Shown in pieces: positions 4,088-59,586 of a stretch of DNA of 64,000 nucleotides. Under the pieces are notes generated by a model. That model did no database searches, was not told the origin of the DNA, and saw only the letters and a list, made by a program, of their open reading frames with translations. This DNA comes from Dehalococcoidales bacterium (lineage in GTDB: Bacteria > Chloroflexota > Dehalococcoidia > Dehalococcoidales > W693), in contig DAOUDM010000035.1 in the NCBI GenBank assembly GCA_034431095.1, positions 844 through 64,843 on the forward strand, in the 5' to 3' direction. The stretch's first letter is position 1; each line of letters starts with the position of its first letter. The translations under genes were made by a program, and so were the position numbers.

Positions 4088-4483
4088 ATGGCACTTAAGG
4101 ATTCATATATTACAATTTCAGAGGCTGCAAAGAAAGCAGGTGTGACTAGGCAGACCGTTTCTCGCTGGATTAAAGATGGCAAACTGCCCGCCGAAAAGAT
4201 TGGAAGGGAAACTCTCATTAAAAAGAAGGATTTGACTAAAATTGGACAAGCTAGACTTGCTGAGACTTTTGATAGTGCTGTTCTGCTTAGTTTTATTAGT
4301 GAAATACGGGAAAGAGGTAAATACAGTGAAAATGATGAAATAACCCATATAGGGAATTTGGTATTTGATATAAAAAAGCAAGATGGCACCCATGATATAG
4401 CTGACGTTCGCTCATTTGTTATAGAGCCCGAAGAAATAAAGATTAAACCAAAAGAAAAATATACAGGAAAGGGAGAAGATTAA
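4088..4483 (+). CDS. Excisionase-family (MerR-like) helix-turn-helix DNA-binding protein with an uncharacterised C-terminal extension
   Basis: 131 aa. The N-terminus YITISEAAKKAGVTRQTVSRWIKDGKLPAEKIGRETLIKKKDL fits the excisionase/HTH_17 pattern. The gene is low-GC (about 28-50% in samples). It is followed by a strong hairpin and then a tRNA. Confidence 0.7.
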   Translation: MALKDSYITISEAAKKAGVTRQTVSRWIKDGKLPAEKIGRETLIKKKDLTKIGQARLAETFDSAVLLSFISEIRERGKYSENDEITHIGNLVFDIKKQDGTHDIADVRSFVIEPEEIKIKPKEKYTGKGED

Positions 4484-4488
4484 TAATT

Positions 4489-4520
4489 AGGAGTGGTATT
4501 AAATACCACTCCTCGTTTGT
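4489..4520 (+). terminator. Intrinsic-terminator-like hairpin after the HTH gene
   Basis: AGGAGTGGTAT-TAA-ATACCACTCCT forms an 11-bp perfect stem (4489-4513), followed by CGTTTGTT. It lies 5 nt after the stop codon. Confidence 0.6.
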
Positions 4521-4524
4521 TATC

Positions 4525-4607
4525 GGCGACGTGCTGGAATTGGCATACAGGCCGAGCTGTCAACTCGGTGGCCTGAAGCCTTGGGAGTTCGAGTCTCCCC
4601 GTCGCCA
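4525..4607 (+). tRNA. Class II tRNA (long variable arm, A73) whose anticodon loop reads CUGUCAA, giving anticodon GUC (Asp); isotype anomalous
   Basis: Manual cloverleaf follows. Acceptor GGCGACG/CGTCGCC, 7 bp and perfect. D arm CTG-GAATTGGCATA-CAG. Anticodon stem CCGAG/CTCGG with loop C-T-GTC-A-A (anticodon 4559-4561). Variable arm of 14 nt, T-GGC-CTGAA-GCC-TT. T arm GGGAG-TTCGAGT-CTCCC. Discriminator A, followed by CCG, so CCA is not fully encoded. Confidence 0.85.
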
Positions 4608-4671
4608 CCGTATTATATGTTATGGCTTCCTTTTAGTTTTGTCAATACTAATCTAGATAATATTTTGCTTT

Positions 4672-36435: not shown

Positions 36436-37065
36436 ATGATAGTAGAGTCGGTGGCGGCAGTTATTTCAGGCTATTTGCTGGGCTCTATCCCCTTTGCCTA
36501 TATAGCCGGTCGCCTGCTGAAGGGGGTGGATATCCGCCAGGTGGGTGGTGGCAATGTCGGCGCCACCAACGTCATGCGGGAGGTGGGCACAGCCGCCGGC
36601 ATCGGTGTCTTTGTTGCCGATGTAGGCAAGGGTACCCTGGCGGTGCTTATTGCCCAGTGGCTCGGCGTTTCTCAGGTAATCGTCTTTGTTACCGGTCTGG
36701 CGGTGGTGGTGGGGCATAACTGGCCTGTATTTCTCAAGTTCAGCGGCGGCAAGGGTGGGGCGACCACCATCGGCGTTTTCTTCGCCCTGGCGCCCGCGCC
36801 GGGTGCCATTAGCTTTGGCATAATGTTGCTGCTTGCCTTCATTACCAGCAACCTCAGGCTGGCGATGGGCATCGGTATCGCCTTTCTGCCCCTTATTATC
36901 TGGGGGTTTGGCGGGGAGGTCAACCTCATAATCTACTCGGTTGCCCTGCCACTATTTACCGGTCTGCGGGCTCTGCCGGCGGTGATACGAAGCCTGAGAA
37001 ACCCGGAAGAGAGGAAGAACTTTATCTTCGATAGGGAGCACAAGCCGTGGCAGAGGAAGAAGTAA
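36436..37065 (+). CDS. plsY: Glycerol-3-phosphate acyltransferase PlsY
   Basis: 209 aa. YLLGSIPFAYIAGRL...GGGNVGATNV...GHNWPVFLKFSGGKGGATT is typical of PlsY. Confidence 0.93.
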   Translation: MIVESVAAVISGYLLGSIPFAYIAGRLLKGVDIRQVGGGNVGATNVMREVGTAAGIGVFVADVGKGTLAVLIAQWLGVSQVIVFVTGLAVVVGHNWPVFLKFSGGKGGATTIGVFFALAPAPGAISFGIMLLLAFITSNLRLAMGIGIAFLPLIIWGFGGEVNLIIYSVALPLFTGLRALPAVIRSLRNPEERKNFIFDREHKPWQRKK

Positions 37066-37083
37066 GTAGAGGGGCAAGGAGAG

Positions 37084-37281
37084 TCATTTTAGTTTTGGTT
37101 TTTTATCCAAGACTTCCTTCAAAGGAATTTCAATTACACAAAAGGCGTTTTTTCTCAGAGTTGTAAATTGACCCTTATCTCTACCAGACCTTTGCATCAC
37201 CCGTACAGGTGCTATCTTAAATGCCTCTACAGCAATTTTATCGCCTTTTAATGCATCCCCTTGATTACGATATGTTGGCAT
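37084..37281 (-). CDS. Hypothetical small protein (65 aa), third gene of the low-GC three-gene operon
   Basis: ATG at 37281 (MPTYRNQGDALKGDKIAVEAF...). It overlaps the upstream gene by 17 nt and has a basic C-terminus, DKKPKLK. I recognise no family. Confidence 0.45.
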   Translation of the reverse strand: MPTYRNQGDALKGDKIAVEAFKIAPVRVMQRSGRDKGQFTTLRKNAFCVIEIPLKEVLDKKPKLK

Positions 37282-37777
37282 CTAAGCCTATTTCCCTACT
37301 TTTCTGTAATTCATTACAAATATCAACAACTATTTCAAGGTCTAATTGTAGTTCTTGAGCAATGTCAGAGTAATAAAGCGTTCGCCCCGTAGAAAAGAGA
37401 TTGCGTATTTCCTCTTTTGCTTCTTCTCTTGAAATCTCTCTAAGTACAATTACCCTTTCTTCTGGTATGTAAGATTCAATGTTTGCTAGGCGTTTTTCAA
37501 TTGCTAATATACTCATTTTTAAGAAATAGTTCTCAGCCAGTAGCTGTGCATTATGTTGTTGAAGCCAATCAGATGACGATATGCTTGTAGTAAACACTGG
37601 GGAATCTACAATGCCAGCAAACAGCCTCTCTTTGAATTCAATCATTTCACTAGGCATTCCAACAGATGACTCAGTAGCAGAGCTACCAATAACTAAAGTA
37701 TTTTCGTCGAACTTTGAATATATGTTTCTCATTAAACCTAGCTCTGATATAGTCCCTGATGCTCCTTGTTCAAGCAT
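37265..37777 (-). CDS. Hypothetical protein with a C-terminal winged-helix-like segment, second gene of the low-GC operon
   Basis: The track ORF starts at a TTG (37798). The ATG at 37777 (MLEQGASG...) lies 10 nt downstream of AAGGAG and overlaps the upstream stop (ATGCTTGA). The C-terminal REISREEAKEEIRNLFSTGRTLYYSDIAQELQLDLEIVVDICNELQKSREI looks like a wHTH; this is inference. Confidence 0.55.
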   Translation of the reverse strand: MLEQGASGTISELGLMRNIYSKFDENTLVIGSSATESSVGMPSEMIEFKERLFAGIVDSPVFTTSISSSDWLQQHNAQLLAENYFLKMSILAIEKRLANIESYIPEERVIVLREISREEAKEEIRNLFSTGRTLYYSDIAQELQLDLEIVVDICNELQKSREIGLDANIS

Positions 37778-38372
37778 TCTTACATAACTCCTTAACAATT
37801 GTTTCGGCTTTTTCTAACGTCACTGATTGCATACTTAATCTTTCCTTAACTTCTTCTAGGCTGGCTATATTAGAATGAAAGTTAAAAGTTGCTCGAATTT
37901 GTTGTTCTTTAACCAATGATGGCGATACTAAAAAGGTAACTATAAATTTCTCGAACTTAAATACTACTGTAGCTCCAAGCTCGTAGGTTGCTGAAAATAA
38001 CTTGCTAAGCTTCTCATTGTCAGGAGAAAAGATAGTGCCTAAATCACAGTTTTCTCTAGAAAAGGTATAATGGTAATTAAGCCCTAGACCTTTATATGGA
38101 GTTTCGGGAAGGATGTCGACAAATTTCGTTGCGATAGTAATTAGTTTATTCAAAGTATCTCGGTTTATTTTTTTAGTTGTTATTTGAAGTTTCCTTTCAT
38201 CGACCACTAGGCTTAAATCCTCACTCTCGATAAGGGCAAAAACGGGGGTATGAATAAAATTACTGACAGTATCAGTAAATATGCCTTTCTGGTAGAGCCA
38301 TTCTTTAGATATAATAGATGGATTATAGTTTGAGGCTAGGACAACAACATTTGCACTATTTGGTGAAATCAT
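37770..38372 (-). CDS. Hypothetical protein (200 aa), first gene of the low-GC operon
   Basis: MISPNSANVVVLASNYNPSIISKEWLYQKGIF... The pattern suggests a soluble, beta-rich protein, with no motif I can assign. GC is about 33% against about 57% in the flanking plsY. No obvious SD lies upstream. Confidence 0.6.
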   Translation of the reverse strand: MISPNSANVVVLASNYNPSIISKEWLYQKGIFTDTVSNFIHTPVFALIESEDLSLVVDERKLQITTKKINRDTLNKLITIATKFVDILPETPYKGLGLNYHYTFSRENCDLGTIFSPDNEKLSKLFSATYELGATVVFKFEKFIVTFLVSPSLVKEQQIRATFNFHSNIASLEEVKERLSMQSVTLEKAETIVKELCKNA

Positions 38373-38408
38373 TTATAAAAGTTTGGGAGTTAAAAGTTAC
38401 CCTTAAGT

Positions 38409-38463
38409 ATTATAACATAATTACTTGATTTACACCTATACACCCTTTATCACTTTTTGTCAA
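38409..38463 (-). promoter_or_regulatory. Candidate promoter(s) of the low-GC three-gene operon
   Basis: The reverse strand has an extended -10, TGTTATAAT (TATAAT at 38409-38414). Further upstream is TTGACA (38458-38463), a 17-nt spacer, then TATAGG (38435-38440). Confidence 0.4.
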
Positions 38464-38487
38464 TACCACCTATATTTATGAAATTTA

Positions 38488-39735
38488 TTAACTATATCCT
38501 CTCACCAGCCCCTCCTCATCTTCCCTCGTCCTGACCTTGCCGTCCAGCCGTGCATCGATTAGCTGGCCAAGAAGTTCTTTAATGCGTGGACCTTGAGGAA
38601 CCCCCATCTTTATCAGGTCGTCGCCGGTGAGTATCGGCTTTACCGTGTGTAGCTTATCCAGATATAGTTGAAGGTGCTGGCGAGCCTGTGGCAAGTCGCT
38701 GGCGATGAGGTTGGCGGTTAACGACTGCGTTGAATAGCCTTCGAGCAGGTGATGGACGGCACTTGGCTTTAGTTTGGAATCAGCCAACTGTGATATCTTG
38801 GCTTTGATGCTGGCGGTATCCTGCAGGGTTTTAGCAAGCGTCTTGGGTAATCTGAGGTATGAGATAAGTTTATCCCTCGGCTTGTTATCCAGTTTGTAGG
38901 TTAACAGTGCCAGATACAGACCTACCGGGGGGCGGCTGGGTGAGCTTGCCTCTCGCGCCTGGCGGAACTTTTCTGCCAGCCAGCCGTTGCCTTTCAGTGC
39001 CGGCTCCAGTTTTGCCAGGACGCCCAGTTCACTAGCGCGGCGGAAGACCTTCTCCGGGAACTCCTCCTTGAGGATACACTCAAGTTCATAGCGGATGCGG
39101 TCGCCGCTTATGGTGTCCAGCATGGGTATATCTCGTTTCAGCAGGCGGAGGGTTTCCGGCTCCAGCTGAAAATCCAGCCTCTGCTCGTAGCGTAGACCGC
39201 GCCAGATACGCGTAGAATCGTCAATGAAGCTCTTTTGGTGCAGGAAGCGTATCATCCTACCCCCCAGGTCTTTTTGCCCGCCGTACGGGTCAATCAGGCG
39301 TCCGTAACCTTTGGGGTTGAGACCGATAGCCATAGCGTTGATGGTAAAGTCGCGGCGGCGGAGGTCGTCGCTCAGGGAGCCGGGCTTTACCATGGGCAGG
39401 GCGCCGGGTTGGGCGTAGCTTTCCTTGCGGGCGGAAGCCAGGTCGATGCTCCACCCGTGCCAGACAATCTTGGCGGTGTTAAAACGCTTATGGACGGTGA
39501 TTTTCCCGGTTTCGTCGTCCGATAGCTCACGGGCGAGGGCTATGGCGTCGCCCTCCACTACCAGGTCGATGTCGAGGTTGGTCTTGTCTAGCAGCAGGTC
39601 ACGCACGATGCCGCCGACAAGATAAAGTCTTTCCCCTTTGCTATCAGCCAGCCTGCCGGCATCTTGGATAAAAGCAAACAGTCCGCCGGGCAATCGCTTC
39701 TCTATTTTCCGGGTGAGGTTATCGCTTTTAGCCAT
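38488..39735 (-). CDS. cca: CCA-adding enzyme / tRNA nucleotidyltransferase (PolyA_pol family)
   Basis: 415 aa. LYLVGGIVRDLLLDKTNLDIDLVVEGD is the GG(x)VRD...DxD nucleotidyltransferase motif, followed by RRRDFTINAMA. This is consistent with both tRNA genes in the window lacking an encoded CCA. Confidence 0.85.
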   Translation of the reverse strand: MAKSDNLTRKIEKRLPGGLFAFIQDAGRLADSKGERLYLVGGIVRDLLLDKTNLDIDLVVEGDAIALARELSDDETGKITVHKRFNTAKIVWHGWSIDLASARKESYAQPGALPMVKPGSLSDDLRRRDFTINAMAIGLNPKGYGRLIDPYGGQKDLGGRMIRFLHQKSFIDDSTRIWRGLRYEQRLDFQLEPETLRLLKRDIPMLDTISGDRIRYELECILKEEFPEKVFRRASELGVLAKLEPALKGNGWLAEKFRQAREASSPSRPPVGLYLALLTYKLDNKPRDKLISYLRLPKTLAKTLQDTASIKAKISQLADSKLKPSAVHHLLEGYSTQSLTANLIASDLPQARQHLQLYLDKLHTVKPILTGDDLIKMGVPQGPRIKELLGQLIDARLDGKVRTREDEEGLVRGYS

Positions 39736-42862: not shown

Positions 42863-43399
42863 CTAAAAAGTATGCGAGAGCTCCATTACTAGCATATCAA
42901 CATACTCCCCGCTAGGGAGTAACCATGAATCCTTAAGAAGTTCTGCCCTCCGAAAGCCTATCTTTTCATAAGCTTGAATAGCTCTTTGGTTAGACGGAAA
43001 GACGGTCAGGCCAAGCAAAGTAAGCCCAAGCTCATTGAAAGCGTAGTCTATCGCCTTCTTTAATGCTTCTGTGCCATATCCCTTCCCACGATACTCCCTG
43101 TCCATGATAGCAATTCCAACCTCAGCCCGGCCTTCCGCCTTATTGATACCTTTAATTGATACATAACCAATGGCTTTATTGTTAGTAGCAAGGATTATAC
43201 TGAATACTATTACTTTCCCATCTTTTAAATTTGGCAGACTTAATACCCGAGAGAAATCAATGAACCTGTCCTTCTCGTTAGGGCGGAATGGTTTCCACCC
43301 CATAGTGGCAATCAATTCGGGATCATTAGAGAGTGACATGTAGTGGTGGATATGTTCATCTTCCATGGGGGATAAGTGAATTCTATCCTCAGTTTTCAC
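42863..43399 (-). CDS. GNAT-family N-acetyltransferase (RimJ/RimL-like)
   Basis: 178 aa. The acetyl-CoA binding region is EVGIAIMDREYRGKGYGTEALKKAIDYAF...VFPSNQRAIQAYEKIGF. GC is lower than the core (about 28-50% in samples). Confidence 0.85.
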   Translation of the reverse strand: MKTEDRIHLSPMEDEHIHHYMSLSNDPELIATMGWKPFRPNEKDRFIDFSRVLSLPNLKDGKVIVFSIILATNNKAIGYVSIKGINKAEGRAEVGIAIMDREYRGKGYGTEALKKAIDYAFNELGLTLLGLTVFPSNQRAIQAYEKIGFRRAELLKDSWLLPSGEYVDMLVMELSHTF

Positions 43400-43469
43400 T
43401 CTGGCAGTTTACCACAAGGATGACTGCCTGAGGAAGCTGTCACCAACAAATGGCATAGGCTAATAAAAA

Positions 43470-43544
43470 AAGTGGCAGCGATTGGATTTGAACCAACGAC
43501 CAAGGGCTTATGAGTTCCAGCCTCTGCCTCTTCTACTTGGGGCA
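43470..43544 (-). pseudogene. tRNA remnant: perfect copy of the 3' 43 nt of the CAU tRNA plus a degenerate 5' half (att-site-like direct repeat)
   Basis: 43470-43515 (AAGTGGCAGCGATTGGATTTGAACCAACGACCAAGGGCTTATGAGT) is identical, 46 of 46, to 44438-44483. That covers tRNA positions 31-73 and 3 nt beyond. The following 30 nt (43516-43544) align only loosely with the tRNA 5' half and cannot form an acceptor stem. Confidence 0.85.
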
Positions 43545-43769
43545 TTATGTTCTCTTAGACTTCTTCTTAGTATAGGGTTGCTTTATTGTGTCTTCAAAGA
43601 AATTTGCTAATACCGACCTACCGAAATTCATTAATGCACCAACCAGTATCTGGGAAATTCTAAATAACCAGCCAGTACTGAATAGAAGTAGCGCAAGCAA
43701 AGACAATATTACTATCTCTAATACGCCCATTTGAAAATCCAGAAGAGTTTGGTAGTTATTATTATACAA
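43545..43769 (-). CDS. Hypothetical small membrane protein (74 aa or shorter)
   Basis: Hydrophobic core MGVLEIVILSLLALLLFSTGWLF...ILVGALMNF with a basic tail, KKKSKRT. It lies inside the tRNA-bounded islet. The start is uncertain, since an internal Met at MGVLE is also possible. Confidence 0.45.
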   Translation of the reverse strand: MYNNNYQTLLDFQMGVLEIVILSLLALLLFSTGWLFRISQILVGALMNFGRSVLANFFEDTIKQPYTKKKSKRT

Positions 43770-43803
43770 TACTTTCGATTGAATAGTTATCTTTTACTGA
43801 ATT

Positions 43804-44388
43804 CTAACTAGTGTCACAACCACTTAAAAGTTCTTCAATACGTTGATTGCATTTATTTATTGGCTTTTTTATTTTATTTATGGTATCTATATTTCCCCTG
43901 TTACTACCTTTAAGTGCTATTAAAGACTGGCTTTTTATACACTCTTTTAAACTTGTAATCATACCTCTATTATTTTGTAAACATAAAGCTCCAAATTCTT
44001 TGATTGTATTCGATAGAAGACTATCAGTTACTTTAGCACCTGCAAGAGTTAATTCTCTTGTGGTTTCCCCTAGATTACTATAAATCTTAAGAGCTTTCTT
44101 CAGTTCGTTCTTCCGTTCGGCTGAATCCTTAGATTGTGAAGCTATATTCATTTGGAAGGTTGCTTCAGTTAGTAAAATATCGAATTCGTACAATAAGTGT
44201 CGGAGTGGCTCCAAATAAGTTGCCCGAACCTTAGTAAGCCTCTCACGTATAGCTTCTTCTTTTTCATGTTGCATACGAGCATGCAAACGTTTATCTGCTG
44301 ATTTATTGGTAAAAATTAGTGCACCTAGTGAAGCGATTAAGGTGGCAAAAGCTGTAATAAGCGCAACAGACACTATATCAGACATCAT
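43804..44388 (-). CDS. Hypothetical membrane-anchored helical protein (194 aa)
   Basis: N-terminal TM helix IVSVALITAFATLIASLGALIF, then a long charged, helical-looking region (HEKEEAIRERLTKVRATYLEPLRHLL...). GGAGGTG lies upstream of the ATG. Low GC. Confidence 0.55.
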   Translation of the reverse strand: MMSDIVSVALITAFATLIASLGALIFTNKSADKRLHARMQHEKEEAIRERLTKVRATYLEPLRHLLYEFDILLTEATFQMNIASQSKDSAERKNELKKALKIYSNLGETTRELTLAGAKVTDSLLSNTIKEFGALCLQNNRGMITSLKECIKSQSLIALKGSNRGNIDTINKIKKPINKCNQRIEELLSGCDTS

Positions 44389-44440
44389 TCACCTCCTACG
44401 GATAGGATTATAGCATCCATTTATGCTGAAAATAAACAAG

Positions 44441-44512
44441 TGGCAGCGATTGGATTTGAACCAACGACCAAGGGCTTATGAGTCCCCTGCTCTGCCACTG
44501 AGCTACGCTGCC
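44441..44512 (-). tRNA. tRNA with CAU anticodon (elongator Met, or lysidine-dependent Ile2)
   Basis: The reverse strand reads GGCAGCGTAGCTCAGTGGCAGAGCAGGGGACTCATAAGCCCTTGGTCGTTGGTTCAAATCCAATCGCTGCCA. It folds with a 7-bp acceptor, a GCTC/GAGC D stem, loop CTCATAA (anticodon = rc of 44478-44480), and T arm GTTGG-TTCAAAT-CCAAT. The G1:C72 pair argues against an initiator. No CCA is encoded. The body resembles my recollection of E. coli ileX at least as much as metT. Confidence 0.9.
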
Positions 44513-52502: not shown

Positions 52503-52528
52503 GCTGAATAGAAATATTGGAAAGAACA

Positions 52529-53476
52529 ATGAAGCGATATGTAATGCCCGTCTTGGCTTTAGTTTTAATCGCAAGCTTATTGCCAGTGTTTGGTTGCGGA
52601 AGCGGAGAGGGTATTTCGGAGAAGCGTGTTATAAAGGCTACCTATGATTATTTGATTGATAGAGCTGAAGAACTGCAGGGAGCTGAAGGTTTTCTGGCGA
52701 AGGGCCAAATAGATTGGGGATTTCATTCGGCAGTGCTTAATGCTTGGAAGGAAGCTACACTCTCTGATGATGGATCTGGAAAGTCAGTTGAAATTTATCT
52801 CGATAAGCGAGATGCAGAAATGGAAGCAAGGAATCAAGCTGCAGGTATACCGAAAGACGCATCTTATAAAATACAAACTTCTTCAAATGCCCTAAAAATG
52901 TTAGCTCAGGATGAAGGAAGCGGACTGTGGGCAGTTTCGATAGGCGAATGGGAACTTGGGTTCAATGAAATAACAAACGAGGTTTTCTCTAAAAATAATG
53001 AAGCTGCGATACTATTAGAAGAAATCACGCTAAAGATATATCACAATACAAAATATGGTTACTCCATAGACTATCCTCCCAAATGGAATATTCTTGATGT
53101 TATAAAAGAGGCGGTCAATATTTCATATGTAAGTTCAGATGCTACTATGGAAAGGGCCATATTTGTTAATATTCTCCCTAAGATTCAGGGGCTCGGACTG
53201 AACGATTACGCAGAATGGAGAGTGAATTCCTTTCGTTACGAAGATTACCAGATATATTTGGCAGAAGGTAATCAGAAGGTCAGTGGAATAGTAGCATACA
53301 TCACCGGACTTAGATTCGAATACCTAGAAATACTAGGAAACTATATAGGCTACGAAGCTCGGTGGTACTTCATTGAGAAAGATGAGAAGATTTGCGAAAT
53401 ACTTACGATTGCAAGGCCAATGCTTTTTAGGACATACTTGTTCGACCCTTATCCAAGTTTTCAATTTTATCCGTAA
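52529..53476 (+). CDS. Putative lipoprotein of unknown function
   Basis: ORF trimmed to MKRYVMPVLALVLIASLLPVFGCGSGEG, a signal peptide with the lipobox L-P-V-F-G-C. 315 aa. The segment is low-GC (about 33-48% in samples). Confidence 0.6.
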   Translation: MKRYVMPVLALVLIASLLPVFGCGSGEGISEKRVIKATYDYLIDRAEELQGAEGFLAKGQIDWGFHSAVLNAWKEATLSDDGSGKSVEIYLDKRDAEMEARNQAAGIPKDASYKIQTSSNALKMLAQDEGSGLWAVSIGEWELGFNEITNEVFSKNNEAAILLEEITLKIYHNTKYGYSIDYPPKWNILDVIKEAVNISYVSSDATMERAIFVNILPKIQGLGLNDYAEWRVNSFRYEDYQIYLAEGNQKVSGIVAYITGLRFEYLEILGNYIGYEARWYFIEKDEKICEILTIARPMLFRTYLFDPYPSFQFYP

Positions 53477-57732: not shown

Positions 57733-59586
57733 TCAATCTGCCACTTTCATTATCAAATCCTTTATTTCTTTGGGTATATCATCTTCCGACATTCTCTTTG
57801 CTACCTCTTGACCAATTGGGCGCTTCCAAAATGTTCTTGCCTTAGGAATCTTGAGTTTTTCATTCAGCAGCCGCTGAATCTCTTTAACCATACGCTCTTT
57901 TTTGTTTATATCATTTTCTGTAAGTTCTAGGCCAAAATTTTCATTTAGGACATGAATAAGAATTGGTGTCGGGTAGCAGTCTTCAATTGTGCCCTCTAAG
58001 ATGAGCCTGTGCTCCTCGTCTACTGACTGCTTAACTTTATCGCTTGCATGACTGTCTACTATTAAGAATACTGTAGTTTGAGCCTGTTTTATATAATCAC
58101 TTATGATATTTATTTTGCGCTTGTCATACTCCCCTTCAAGAACTTCAATTCTCACCTTTTTAATATCCACTTCCAGTCTTTCCGCCCAAATTGGCAACAC
58201 TCCTTCCTCCGTCTCGCCCGCTACAAATAAAATTTTGTTAGGATACCCCCTATCACTTGGTTCAGCTCCTAATAAACCGAAAGCCTCTTGCAGTTCCTTT
58301 TCTGTTTTTATCTCTTTAGCCTTTGCTTCTTTAGCCTTCTTTTCTAGGAACCAATTCTTACCAGCCTCTGACATTTTAACGAAGTACTCGGAATGGGTAG
58401 CTACAATAATTTGTTTCTTGGTTGCCCATTCCTTTAACAGTTTAGATACTCCTCTTGAAAGATTATGATGTAAGTGTGTTTCAGGTTCTTCAACAGCGAT
58501 GATAGGCTCATCAGCCGTATGAACTTGGTACACTAGACTGATAGCTTCTTGCTGACCGCCGCCAATGAGTTGGATAGGAAGACGCAAATTCCTTTCACGT
58601 GTGGATAATACGGGAACCGAATCCAGCCTTTGTCCGGTAAGCTTTTCAACGGCAGTTTCAATTTCATACCAAGCTCCGAAATCAGTTGAGTTTAGATTTT
58701 TGAGCGGCTCAATGATTGTGGATGTGTTAAGGAATGATGAGCGCTCTCCTGGTTCTACTCGTTCATCTCGTGTCGCTGGTATCAATTTCAGCTTACCTTT
58801 AATTTTCTCGGTAATCCTATTCTGAACGTATTGAAGCGTTTCACTAGTAACTAATGAAACCTCTCTGCCAAGAAAAGCATCAACATCCTCCTTTGCAGGA
58901 GGATTTTCTACGAGGTCAAATTCTTGATTAGCAGCCCAGACCTTGTAGTCTTCCCCGGGAAGCTGTTTAAAGGGAATCTGACCCTCACGGACTAAACTAT
59001 CGGTGTAATCATCCATGTGGTAAGCAATTTTATTCAAAACAACTAACCGATTGCCTATCAGGTTTGATTGGTTTGCGTTCGGGTCAAATAAGAAAGCTTT
59101 CACTTTGCCAGTTGGACGCTTAGTGGCTACTTTACCTATCGATTTGTTTAGCTCTTCTGGCGATACCACAGAGTTGTTTTTCACCAAAGGAACTTTCGCG
59201 ATATTTATTTGCACAGTCTCCCATGGTGCTTCTGGTTTTGTGATTTGCCTATGGATAGTAAGCTCCTTATAACTATCCCTATATTTTTCAATAACCTTAT
59301 CTAGCATATCCTCTGGAAATATGTCCCTGCACTCCTCCTCGTCTAGTACTATTTTGGCAATGAATTCTAATGGAACCTTCTTATTATGCCACGAAGTGTC
59401 TTCCTGTAGTATTGGGGAAGGTGAACCACCAACAATACTAAAGTCTTTAAAGAACAGGTATAAAGCTTCTAACATGCTCGTTTTTCCAGAACCATTTTCC
59501 CCAATCAAGGTTGTGTAGTTACCAAAGTCCACTTTTACTTCACGCAAACTTTTGTAGTTCTTTACTGTAAATTCGACTAAATTCAT
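57733..59586 (-). CDS. OLD-family ATP-dependent endonuclease (N-terminal ABC-type ATPase + C-terminal TOPRIM), class 1-like stand-alone gene
   Basis: 617 aa. Walker A LIGENGSGKTSMLEAL, Walker B-like IIAVEEPETHLHH, and H-loop VATHSEYF. TOPRIM-type acidic motifs are KILFVAGETEEGVLP, FLIVDSHASD and LILEGTIEDCYP. GC is about 33% in a sampled 60-mer. GGAGGT lies 6 nt upstream of the ATG. Confidence 0.85.
   Translation of the reverse strand: MNLVEFTVKNYKSLREVKVDFGNYTTLIGENGSGKTSMLEALYLFFKDFSIVGGSPSPILQEDTSWHNKKVPLEFIAKIVLDEEECRDIFPEDMLDKVIEKYRDSYKELTIHRQITKPEAPWETVQINIAKVPLVKNNSVVSPEELNKSIGKVATKRPTGKVKAFLFDPNANQSNLIGNRLVVLNKIAYHMDDYTDSLVREGQIPFKQLPGEDYKVWAANQEFDLVENPPAKEDVDAFLGREVSLVTSETLQYVQNRITEKIKGKLKLIPATRDERVEPGERSSFLNTSTIIEPLKNLNSTDFGAWYEIETAVEKLTGQRLDSVPVLSTRERNLRLPIQLIGGGQQEAISLVYQVHTADEPIIAVEEPETHLHHNLSRGVSKLLKEWATKKQIIVATHSEYFVKMSEAGKNWFLEKKAKEAKAKEIKTEKELQEAFGLLGAEPSDRGYPNKILFVAGETEEGVLPIWAERLEVDIKKVRIEVLEGEYDKRKINIISDYIKQAQTTVFLIVDSHASDKVKQSVDEEHRLILEGTIEDCYPTPILIHVLNENFGLELTENDINKKERMVKEIQRLLNEKLKIPKARTFWKRPIGQEVAKRMSEDDIPKEIKDLIMKVAD

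Follow-up and report, generated by a model that had tools for sequence, protein, structure and literature searches.

The window studied here is a 64,000-nucleotide stretch of DNA from a Dehalococcoidales bacterium (GenBank assembly GCA_034431095.1, contig DAOUDM010000035.1, positions 844 to 64,843 of the forward strand), and within it a short AT-rich block (37084-38487), situated between the housekeeping genes plsY and cca, carries three overlapping reverse-strand genes that we call A, B and C in their order in the operon. We propose that this block is a tripartite toxin-antitoxin (TA)-like module, a reading to which we give about an even chance and which is supported by the strict co-occurrence of the three genes, their coupling, the selection that acts on them, the replacement of the third gene by toxin-type partners in sister operons, the modularity of the second gene and the charge complementarity of B and C. 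The system would bring an accessory family, A, into a tripartite TA-like arrangement, with C as a new candidate toxin. The genes and their junctions are the following.

Gene A, 37770-38372, reverse strand, 200 aa, first gene of the trio
Gene B, 37265-37777, reverse strand, 170 aa counted from its ATG (177 aa if read from an upstream TTG at 37798)
Gene C, 37084-37281, reverse strand, 65 aa, third gene of the trio
Overlap of the A stop and the B start, ATGCTTGA, 37770-37777, reverse strand, 8 nt, translational coupling
Overlap of the B stop and the C start, ATGCCAACATATCGTAA, 37265-37281, reverse strand, 17 nt, translational coupling

These coordinates reproduce the three open reading frames (ORFs) and both overlaps that had been described in a first-pass annotation of the same DNA, made from the sequence alone. 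Its hand-counted GC contents, about 33% in the block and about 57% in plsY, were recomputed as 0.333 (37321-37380) and 0.567 (36601-36660), and the break in composition that it placed at the gene boundaries is indeed found there: the block as a whole has a GC content of 0.348, against 0.584 in the left flank and 0.549 in the right flank, with switches at ~37070-37080 and ~38490-38500 (that is, near 37075 and 38495). At third codon positions (GC3) the difference is larger, with 0.26-0.29 for A, B and C compared with 0.65-0.70 for rsmA, ispE, plsY and cca. All three are real genes under purifying selection, as the dN/dS values obtained with their closest relatives are 0.09-0.16 for A, 0.31-0.41 for B and 0.10-0.12 for C; the last value identifies C as a genuine gene, and C is absent from the ENA gene calls on the source contig, a metagenome scaffold of 121 kb that the labels of the nearest homologues assign to Dehalococcoidia/Chloroflexota. 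No meaningful match to A, B or C was found in Pfam, NCBIfam or PHROGs, PADLOC-DB v2 gave 0 families at E<=1, and sequence profiles searched against the PDB returned nothing for A, only coiled coils for B and sub-threshold uS10 noise for C. An ordinary metabolic or structural family, which the first-pass annotation had named as one of the outcomes that would speak against its view, was assigned to none of the three proteins by any profile search.

Using peptide patterns derived from A, we recovered 16 loci in species-representative genomes and 73 in metagenomes; 94 fetched loci carry A, representing 70 distinct A sequences, and duplicate loci were collapsed at 95% identity for the distinct counts. 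The bacterial carriers are Dehalococcoidia and Syntrophaceae, and the archaeal carriers are Methanophagales, ANME-2, Methanosarcinaceae (including the cultured Methanohalophilus euhalobius), Methanovorans, Thermoplasmata and Halobacteria. Where at least 900 nt of sequence lie downstream of A, a coupled gene 2 and gene 3 follow it in 50 of the 51 distinct loci. Among the junctions, an overlap of 8 nt is the commonest for A and gene 2 (45 of 84 loci) and one of 17 nt for gene 2 and gene 3 (21 loci). The co-occurrence of the trio in other genomes, which had been put forward earlier as a check, is found throughout: A, B and C are present together in all 18 distinct cassettes of the C type, and other Dehalococcoidia contigs carry the trio with the same overlaps and similar lengths (~200, 170 and 61-70 aa) in unrelated neighbourhoods. 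Distant relatives of A also head three-gene operons (L102, L103, L104, L108 and L109). The third gene of the distinct loci can be subdivided into the types listed below, and in the sister operons the place of C is taken by PIN, HEPN or HicA-like genes.

Window's C type, 18 distinct loci, no Pfam match
HEPN-like, 11 distinct loci, HEPN at 25.5 and 26.5 bits (cut-off 22)
HicA-like, 7 distinct loci, HicA_toxin at 23 bits, below the cut-off of 27
Retropepsin-like, 4 distinct loci, a weak assignment (gag-asp_proteas at E 0.024 in one of three tested)
PIN, 2 distinct loci, 44 and 30.9 bits (cut-off 23.6)
201-aa type, 2 distinct loci, no Pfam match
Singletons, 6 distinct loci, no match for the two tested (L092 and L099)

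The HEPN-like third genes (L008, L017, L018, L062, L071, L072, L083, L086, L020 and L048) have the sequence R-N/T/G-x-A/V-D-Y at the position of the canonical Rx4-6H motif, a Tyr replacing the His in the sequences inspected.

Homologues of C follow B in 30 C-type loci, of which 24 were aligned. The window C has an isoelectric point (pI) of 10.1, close to the family mean of 9.9, and B has a pI of 4.5; this pairing of a basic C with an acidic B holds family-wide, and a basic toxin facing an acidic antitoxin is the usual polarity of TA pairs. In two loci (L026, 5729-5944, and L027, 2332-2547) a diverged C-like paralogue of 71 aa lies directly after C, giving a four-gene cassette.

B, for which more than 162 homologues were collected, can be divided into three segments.

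B residues 1-78, 37544-37777, reverse strand, Ser/Thr/Gly-rich N-terminal module with the motifs LMR.I..FDE and G.P.E.IE.K.RL
B residues 79-107, 37457-37543, reverse strand, predicted coiled coil with a heptad-like consensus
B residues 108-170, 37268-37456, reverse strand, acidic C-terminal domain, highly conserved

Column identity is 0.39-0.45 over the N-terminal 78 residues, compared with 0.75-0.85 over the C-terminal half, where the sequence YYSDIA..L.LDL..VVDIC.EL is near-invariant. Searched against the PDB, the B profile finds coiled-coil proteins only, at profile positions ~45-112, and the coiled coil is, to judge from its sequence, probably a dimerisation helix. Several B homologues (P0094, P0110, P0117 and others) bear the JGI label "regulator of replication initiation timing", which we take to be the COG4467/YabA label; it most likely reflects the coiled-coil segment only, because coiled coils are all that the B profile matches in the PDB. 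The C-terminal domain has a pI of 4.55 (family mean 4.49), and its profile matches neither a PDB sequence nor a Pfam family. The first-pass annotation had seen a winged-helix-like segment at this end of B and took it to suggest a DNA-binding or regulatory component; a winged helix-turn-helix could not be confirmed there, as no such family was matched in Pfam or by profile in the PDB, and the strong acidity of the domain argues against a DNA-binding role. An acidic B would better fit a protein-binding neutraliser of the basic C than a DNA binder.

Across the family gene 2 encodes proteins of 142-275 aa, which fall into families that track the type of gene 3, with the single exception of the loci L048 and L049. 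Their gene 2 (243 aa) has a B-type N-terminus (blastp 1.9e-9 against L028; 7.8e-6 with the hidden Markov model, HMM, of the C-type N-terminus), lacks the C-terminal domain of B and instead ends in a segment recognised by the HMM of the HEPN-type gene 2 (3.8e-5, the best non-HEPN hit being at 0.24); it is followed by a HEPN-like gene 3 and preceded by an A from the Dehalococcoidia lineage that shares 52% identity with the window A. As read from these sequences, gene 2 is composed of two modules, of which L048/L049 is a natural chimera, and the chimera implies that the N-terminal module travels with A and the C-terminal module with the toxin gene. Apart from this chimera and a weak hint between the HicA-type and PIN-type proteins (E 0.013), no N-terminal motif common to all gene-2 types was found. 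The gene 2 of the HicA-type operons was considered as a HicB-like protein, and this was not confirmed, its C-terminus having no PDB profile match.

A belongs to a very large family: besides 65 close homologues, its profile collects from 1.84 billion representatives 1,672 clusters (50% identity, E<=1e-3), which are almost without exception stand-alone proteins of 195-230 aa, and 60 diverse relatives gave only scattered chance matches and no Pfam or NCBIfam family. The AlphaFold2 (AF2) model of A (pLDDT 90.4, pTM 0.86) is a compact alpha/beta sandwich in which a strand, a helix, four strands, a long helix, a long strand, a helix, three strands and two helices succeed one another. With Foldseek, its top PDB matches are S-adenosylmethionine decarboxylase (AdoMetDC)/prozyme and human AdoMetDC (E 3.8e-5 to 1e-3, probability 1.0), at TM-scores (TM) of 0.35-0.41 and root-mean-square deviations (rmsd) of 12-18 A, and no internal sequence repeat was detected in A by hhalign. 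The polar motifs NYNPSI, HTP, LPETPY and FNFH are sharply conserved; in the broad family, the residues conserved at 90% or more are A13, N17, P18, I20, W25, L88, P92, Y93, G97, N99, G133 and N164, among which there is no Ser, Cys, His, Asp or Glu, and this non-catalytic set favours a binding protein.

An unnamed viral protein of 202 aa in BFVD (A0A515MGR4) has the fold of A (TM 0.75, rmsd 3.2 A) with 14% identity. Two scans of IMG/VR viral contigs found no relative of A, tblastn returned nothing with the window A as query against the phage and plasmid collections, nor when phages were searched with the distant member P0321, and cyanobacterial plasmids were matched by a distant member of the A family only. 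A cassette is carried by the culturable Picosynechococcus sp. PCC 8807 on its plasmid NZ_CP016487. In Methanohalophilus euhalobius WG-1MB (L012, 7989-8588) neither ATG nor GTG nor TTG is present where the A homologue should begin; the residues IHDISLIGAN... come after a stop codon there, and translation from the first canonical start would yield 171 aa that lack the first strand. Decay of this copy or the use of a non-canonical start would account for this.

In the mechanism that we infer from these features, C (65 aa, pI 10) would be a growth-inhibiting effector and B (170 aa, pI 4.5) a coiled-coil dimeric antitoxin or adaptor whose acidic C-terminal domain would bind and sequester C. The N-terminal extension of B, of ~80 residues, would serve as a docking segment for A, which would control B through it, either by stabilising B in the way a SecB-like chaperone acts on the addiction segment of the antitoxin in toxin-antitoxin-chaperone (TAC) systems or by coupling the stability of B to a trigger, and the loss or titration of A or B would then free C. 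That A acts specifically as a chaperone or adaptor is suggested by analogy with TAC, and we consider it possible though rather doubtful.

TAC systems pair one SecB-like chaperone with HigBA, HicAB or MqsRA, the link being an antitoxin extension that is poorly conserved, specific to the chaperone and transferable between antitoxins (Bordes et al. 2016, PMC5105189). The TAC of M. tuberculosis (Rv1955-1957) and its relatives resemble the cassettes studied here in having three co-operonic genes with one conserved accessory protein and varied toxin families, and the transferable extension of the TAC antitoxin may be mirrored by the L048/L049 chimera. By contrast, A is not SecB-like, having no match in Pfam or NCBIfam and no SecB among the PDB fold matches listed; it is encoded by the first gene of the operon whereas the TAC chaperone is encoded by the last, the extension is N-terminal and ~80-100 aa long instead of a short C-terminal chaperone addiction (ChAD) segment, and the partners are PIN, HEPN, HicA-like, retropepsin-like and C proteins instead of HigB, MqsR or HicA. 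The A family is moreover common in Archaea, and a chaperone role for A is drawn by analogy. Searches of the literature for an already described system with these components brought up TAC papers and general reviews only.

The cassettes also share features with the classical type II TA systems (VapBC, HicAB, HEPN), since sister operons end in PIN, HEPN or HicA-like genes and an antitoxin-like gene precedes the toxin gene with tight overlaps (17 nt for B/C, 8 nt for A/B) and an acidic and basic pair of products. However, the window B and C fall outside the VapBC, HicAB and HEPN/MNT families, neither Pfam nor PDB profiles identify gene 2 of the sister operons as VapB, HicB or MNT, and the HEPN-like third genes end their motif in Tyr, unlike the Rx4-6H of canonical HEPN toxins. 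The Panacea (PanA) domain is a hyper-promiscuous antitoxin domain at the heart of a combinatorial TA network (Ernits et al. 2023, PMC10440598), and here too one conserved module is associated with many unrelated toxin domains and antitoxins are assembled from exchangeable domains, but the promiscuous element is a separate protein, A, and not an antitoxin domain, and no sequence relationship was found. Three-component systems formed by COG2856 (a Zn protease), Xre and a toxin have been predicted (Makarova et al. 2009, PMC2701414), in which a conserved third protein would likewise target the antitoxin or repressor that is paired with a variable toxin; A, however, has no Pfam match to a metalloprotease or to anything else, and B lacks the Xre helix-turn-helix (HTH).

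The cassettes are inserted at diverse sites, and their GC content is below that of the flanks in every locus. They lie between asd and the H+-pyrophosphatase gene hppA (L003-5), beside HAMP and Usp genes (L001), between gyrB and hisS (L022-25) or after methylmalonyl-CoA mutase genes (L026/27), and further cassettes adjoin relA, a DDE transposase gene or tRNA genes; some A-headed copies are embedded in type I restriction-modification operons or in islands of TA and Abi genes, in keeping with an accessory and mobile character. In the window and in seven relatives (L091, L029, L032, L033, L028, L030 and L037) the cassette directly follows cca, and in L051 it is found immediately before cca, in a different arrangement. 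The Cca proteins of the cca-adjacent relatives are only 42-65% identical to the window Cca, compared with an identity of 63-80% for A between cca-adjacent contigs. On four contigs (L029, L028, L030 and L006, the last without cca on the contig) ispE or rsmA is convergent downstream and there is no plsY. The conserved flanks of the cca site are cca and ispE, and plsY (36436-37065 in the window) is a variable neighbour, so that of the two housekeeping flanks named in the first-pass annotation, cca holds for the clade and plsY does not. Its proposal of horizontal acquisition likewise stands in part: the cassette is accessory and AT-rich, but a recent arrival is too simple a view for a site common to contigs with such diverged Cca proteins, and the insertion beside cca is either old or repeatedly renewed. 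The place beside cca is shared with related contigs, but the GC3 of the window cassette is far from that of host genes, unlike the clade-wide synteny with host-like codon usage that the annotation had named as refuting its hypothesis; that so low a GC3 should be kept despite the same site in deeply diverged hosts is a puzzle.

Among the neighbours related to tRNA are cca itself (L051, 4986-7833), hisS (L022, 4360-7000) and, by eye, a leuS-like gene of 943 aa (L008, 1610-5183), and the tRNA genes beside cassettes (L058, 3-77; L040, 2266-2341; L050, 2815-3042) are those for tRNA-Asn, tRNA-His and two tRNA-Ser. This adjacency could reflect an integration-site preference or a functional link.

Upstream of A, the following promoter-like elements can be read.

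AT-rich leader, 38373-38487, reverse strand, 115 nt from the cca stop codon to the A start
TTGACA-N17-TATAGG, 38435-38463, reverse strand, putative promoter read from the sequence (TTGACA at 38458-38463, TATAGG at 38435-38440)
Extended -10 TGTTATAAT, 38409-38417, reverse strand, putative element read from the sequence
Direct repeat GGTGTA-TA-GGTGTA, 38431-38444, reverse strand, between the two promoter-like elements and kept in L028 and L030

Both promoter-like elements are located where the first-pass annotation had placed them, and an element of the TGTTATAAT type is kept with its surroundings 5' of A in L028, L030, L035, L022 and L040. Nucleotide homology with L030 extends from 38489, at the cca stop codon, to 37101, inside the 3' end of C, and homology with L028 starts at 38466. 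A generic promoter scan ranked neither site (6 sites, against 4.5 +/- 2.0 in shuffled sequence), and a generic scan of the block for terminators found none; the conservation of the predicted extended -10 across cassettes is better evidence than the generic scan. The direct repeat could be an operator.

Several observations weigh against a TA-like module. C matches no toxin family in Pfam or the PDB, its AF2 model (10 sequences) is of low confidence (pLDDT 47.5), and the window C has an Asp where most members of its family have a His. A reading of C as a minimal HicA, on the strength of a "GS..H" motif, was tried and rejected: hhalign gave a probability of 0.1 against the HicA-like gene-3 family, none of the 30 C-type sequences matched HicA_toxin, and the His column is not invariant. 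Among known antitoxin families there is no match to the C-terminal domain of B or to gene 2 of the other types, the module-swap argument comes from a single natural chimera, whose two contigs are identical in sequence, and the sample of loci is skewed to A1-like members. A has neither invariant catalytic-type residues nor an informative structural neighbour (best PDB TM 0.41), and for this reason its role rests on analogy. A stable place beside cca across Cca proteins of 42-65% identity would be unusual for a purely selfish TA module. Finally, PADLOC finds no known defence system at the locus; of the undescribed accessory module, defensive or TA-like, that the first-pass annotation had proposed, the novelty and the TA-like architecture are borne out, together with toxin domains in the sister operons, and its defensive side finds no counterpart in PADLOC.

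This absence from PADLOC also bears on the possibility that the cassette is an anti-phage or abortive-infection system, in which A would sense infection, for example by binding a phage protein or through its own degradation, and release the hold of B on C to stop the infected cell. Such a function would agree with the A-headed cassettes that lie directly after hsdR (L009 and L069) or after a ResIII nuclease gene (L017), between hsdR and hsdS with an adjoining HepT gene on a Picosynechococcus plasmid (L104), or in an island with ParE and AbiEi/AbiEii in a member of the Pirellulaceae (L102), as well as with the viral A0A515MGR4, possibly a decoy or a phage-borne copy of the A fold, and with the low GC content and sporadic distribution expected of defence islands. 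Housekeeping genes (cca, ispE, asd, gyrB, hisS) nevertheless adjoin the cassette in the window and in the majority of Dehalococcoidia loci, and the searches of viral contigs, phages and plasmids reported above were empty, so that we consider this explanation unlikely. Less probable still is that the cassette is a domesticated regulator of tRNA or CCA-end metabolism, with products acting on tRNA or on the CCA-adding enzyme. Its place after cca in the window and seven relatives and before cca in L051, the copies beside hisS, the leucyl-tRNA-synthetase-like gene and tRNA genes, and the conservation of A, at least as high as that of Cca, would suit such a role, but tRNA genes are generic integration sites, many neighbours are unrelated (asd/hppA, HAMP, methylmalonyl-CoA mutase, restriction-modification genes, transposase), the GC3 of the cassette is far from that of its host, and the family crosses the domains of life with swappable toxin genes.

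A could also be an enzyme with an AdoMetDC-like fold, with B and C as its regulators or substrates in a small-molecule or modification system. The two proteins share an alpha/beta sandwich of two similar halves, AdoMetDC and prozyme are the top Foldseek matches, and A has conserved polar motifs; yet the TM of these matches is low and their rmsd high, sequence similarity to AdoMetDC, the conserved processing serine and any Pfam match are all lacking, the most conserved residues include none of the Ser, Cys, His, Asp or Glu type, and a PIN, HEPN or HicA-type third gene would be left unexplained, which makes this reading very improbable in our view. Least credible of all is that the block is what remains of a mobile element or prophage, in decay and without present function: it is AT-rich, lacks any family annotation and contains a smallest ORF that the ENA pipeline did not call, but the purifying selection on all three genes excludes decay by dN/dS, lengths and overlaps are kept across dozens of loci, the searches around the block for terminal repeats and att-like sites gave only short chance-level matches, an integrase is absent, and no viral relatives are found by sequence.

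The window also contains other low-GC islands. At 4088-4483 (forward strand) an ORF of 131 aa with a GC content of 0.37 and an HTH/excisionase-like N-terminus lies immediately 5' of a tRNA-Asp gene (4525-4609), and the region 4088-4609 resembles the border of a further small, tRNA-associated island. A second low-GC island (42863-44512, reverse strand) ends at a tRNA-Met gene (44440-44512) and contains a GNAT-like ORF of 178 aa (42863-43399), a hydrophobic ORF of 74 aa (43545-43769) and an ORF of 194 aa with an N-terminal transmembrane segment (43804-44388). The ORF of 617 aa at 57733-59586 (reverse strand, GC content 0.40) has an N-terminal P-loop, GENGSGKTS, and by eye resembles a defence ATPase of the OLD/AAA_15 type, and that of 319 aa at 52517-53476 (forward strand, GC content 0.40) has a lipoprotein-like signal sequence.

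Beyond the window, we put forward tentatively, and with less than even expectation, that A is the universal and exchangeable control module of a new class of tripartite TA or defence systems in Archaea and Bacteria, a non-SecB and non-enzymatic alpha/beta protein that would dock on the N-terminal addiction or sensor segment of otherwise unrelated antitoxins and govern at least five effector types (PIN, HEPN, HicA-like, retropepsin-like and C, the last as a new toxin family). If this is true, a family of more than 1,600 clusters (at 50% identity), now described as "hypothetical" and absent from Pfam, NCBIfam and PADLOC, would receive a role, and C would be a new small toxin candidate. To our knowledge, the addiction of TA systems to a chaperone or adaptor is so far known only for SecB-like proteins; the cassettes would provide a second, independent case and would extend the phenomenon to the Archaea, including ANME and other methanogen-related lineages. 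The natural domain swaps would make partner specificity directly testable, and many unannotated toxin modules would be flagged in metagenome-assembled genomes of sediment Chloroflexota and of Archaea.

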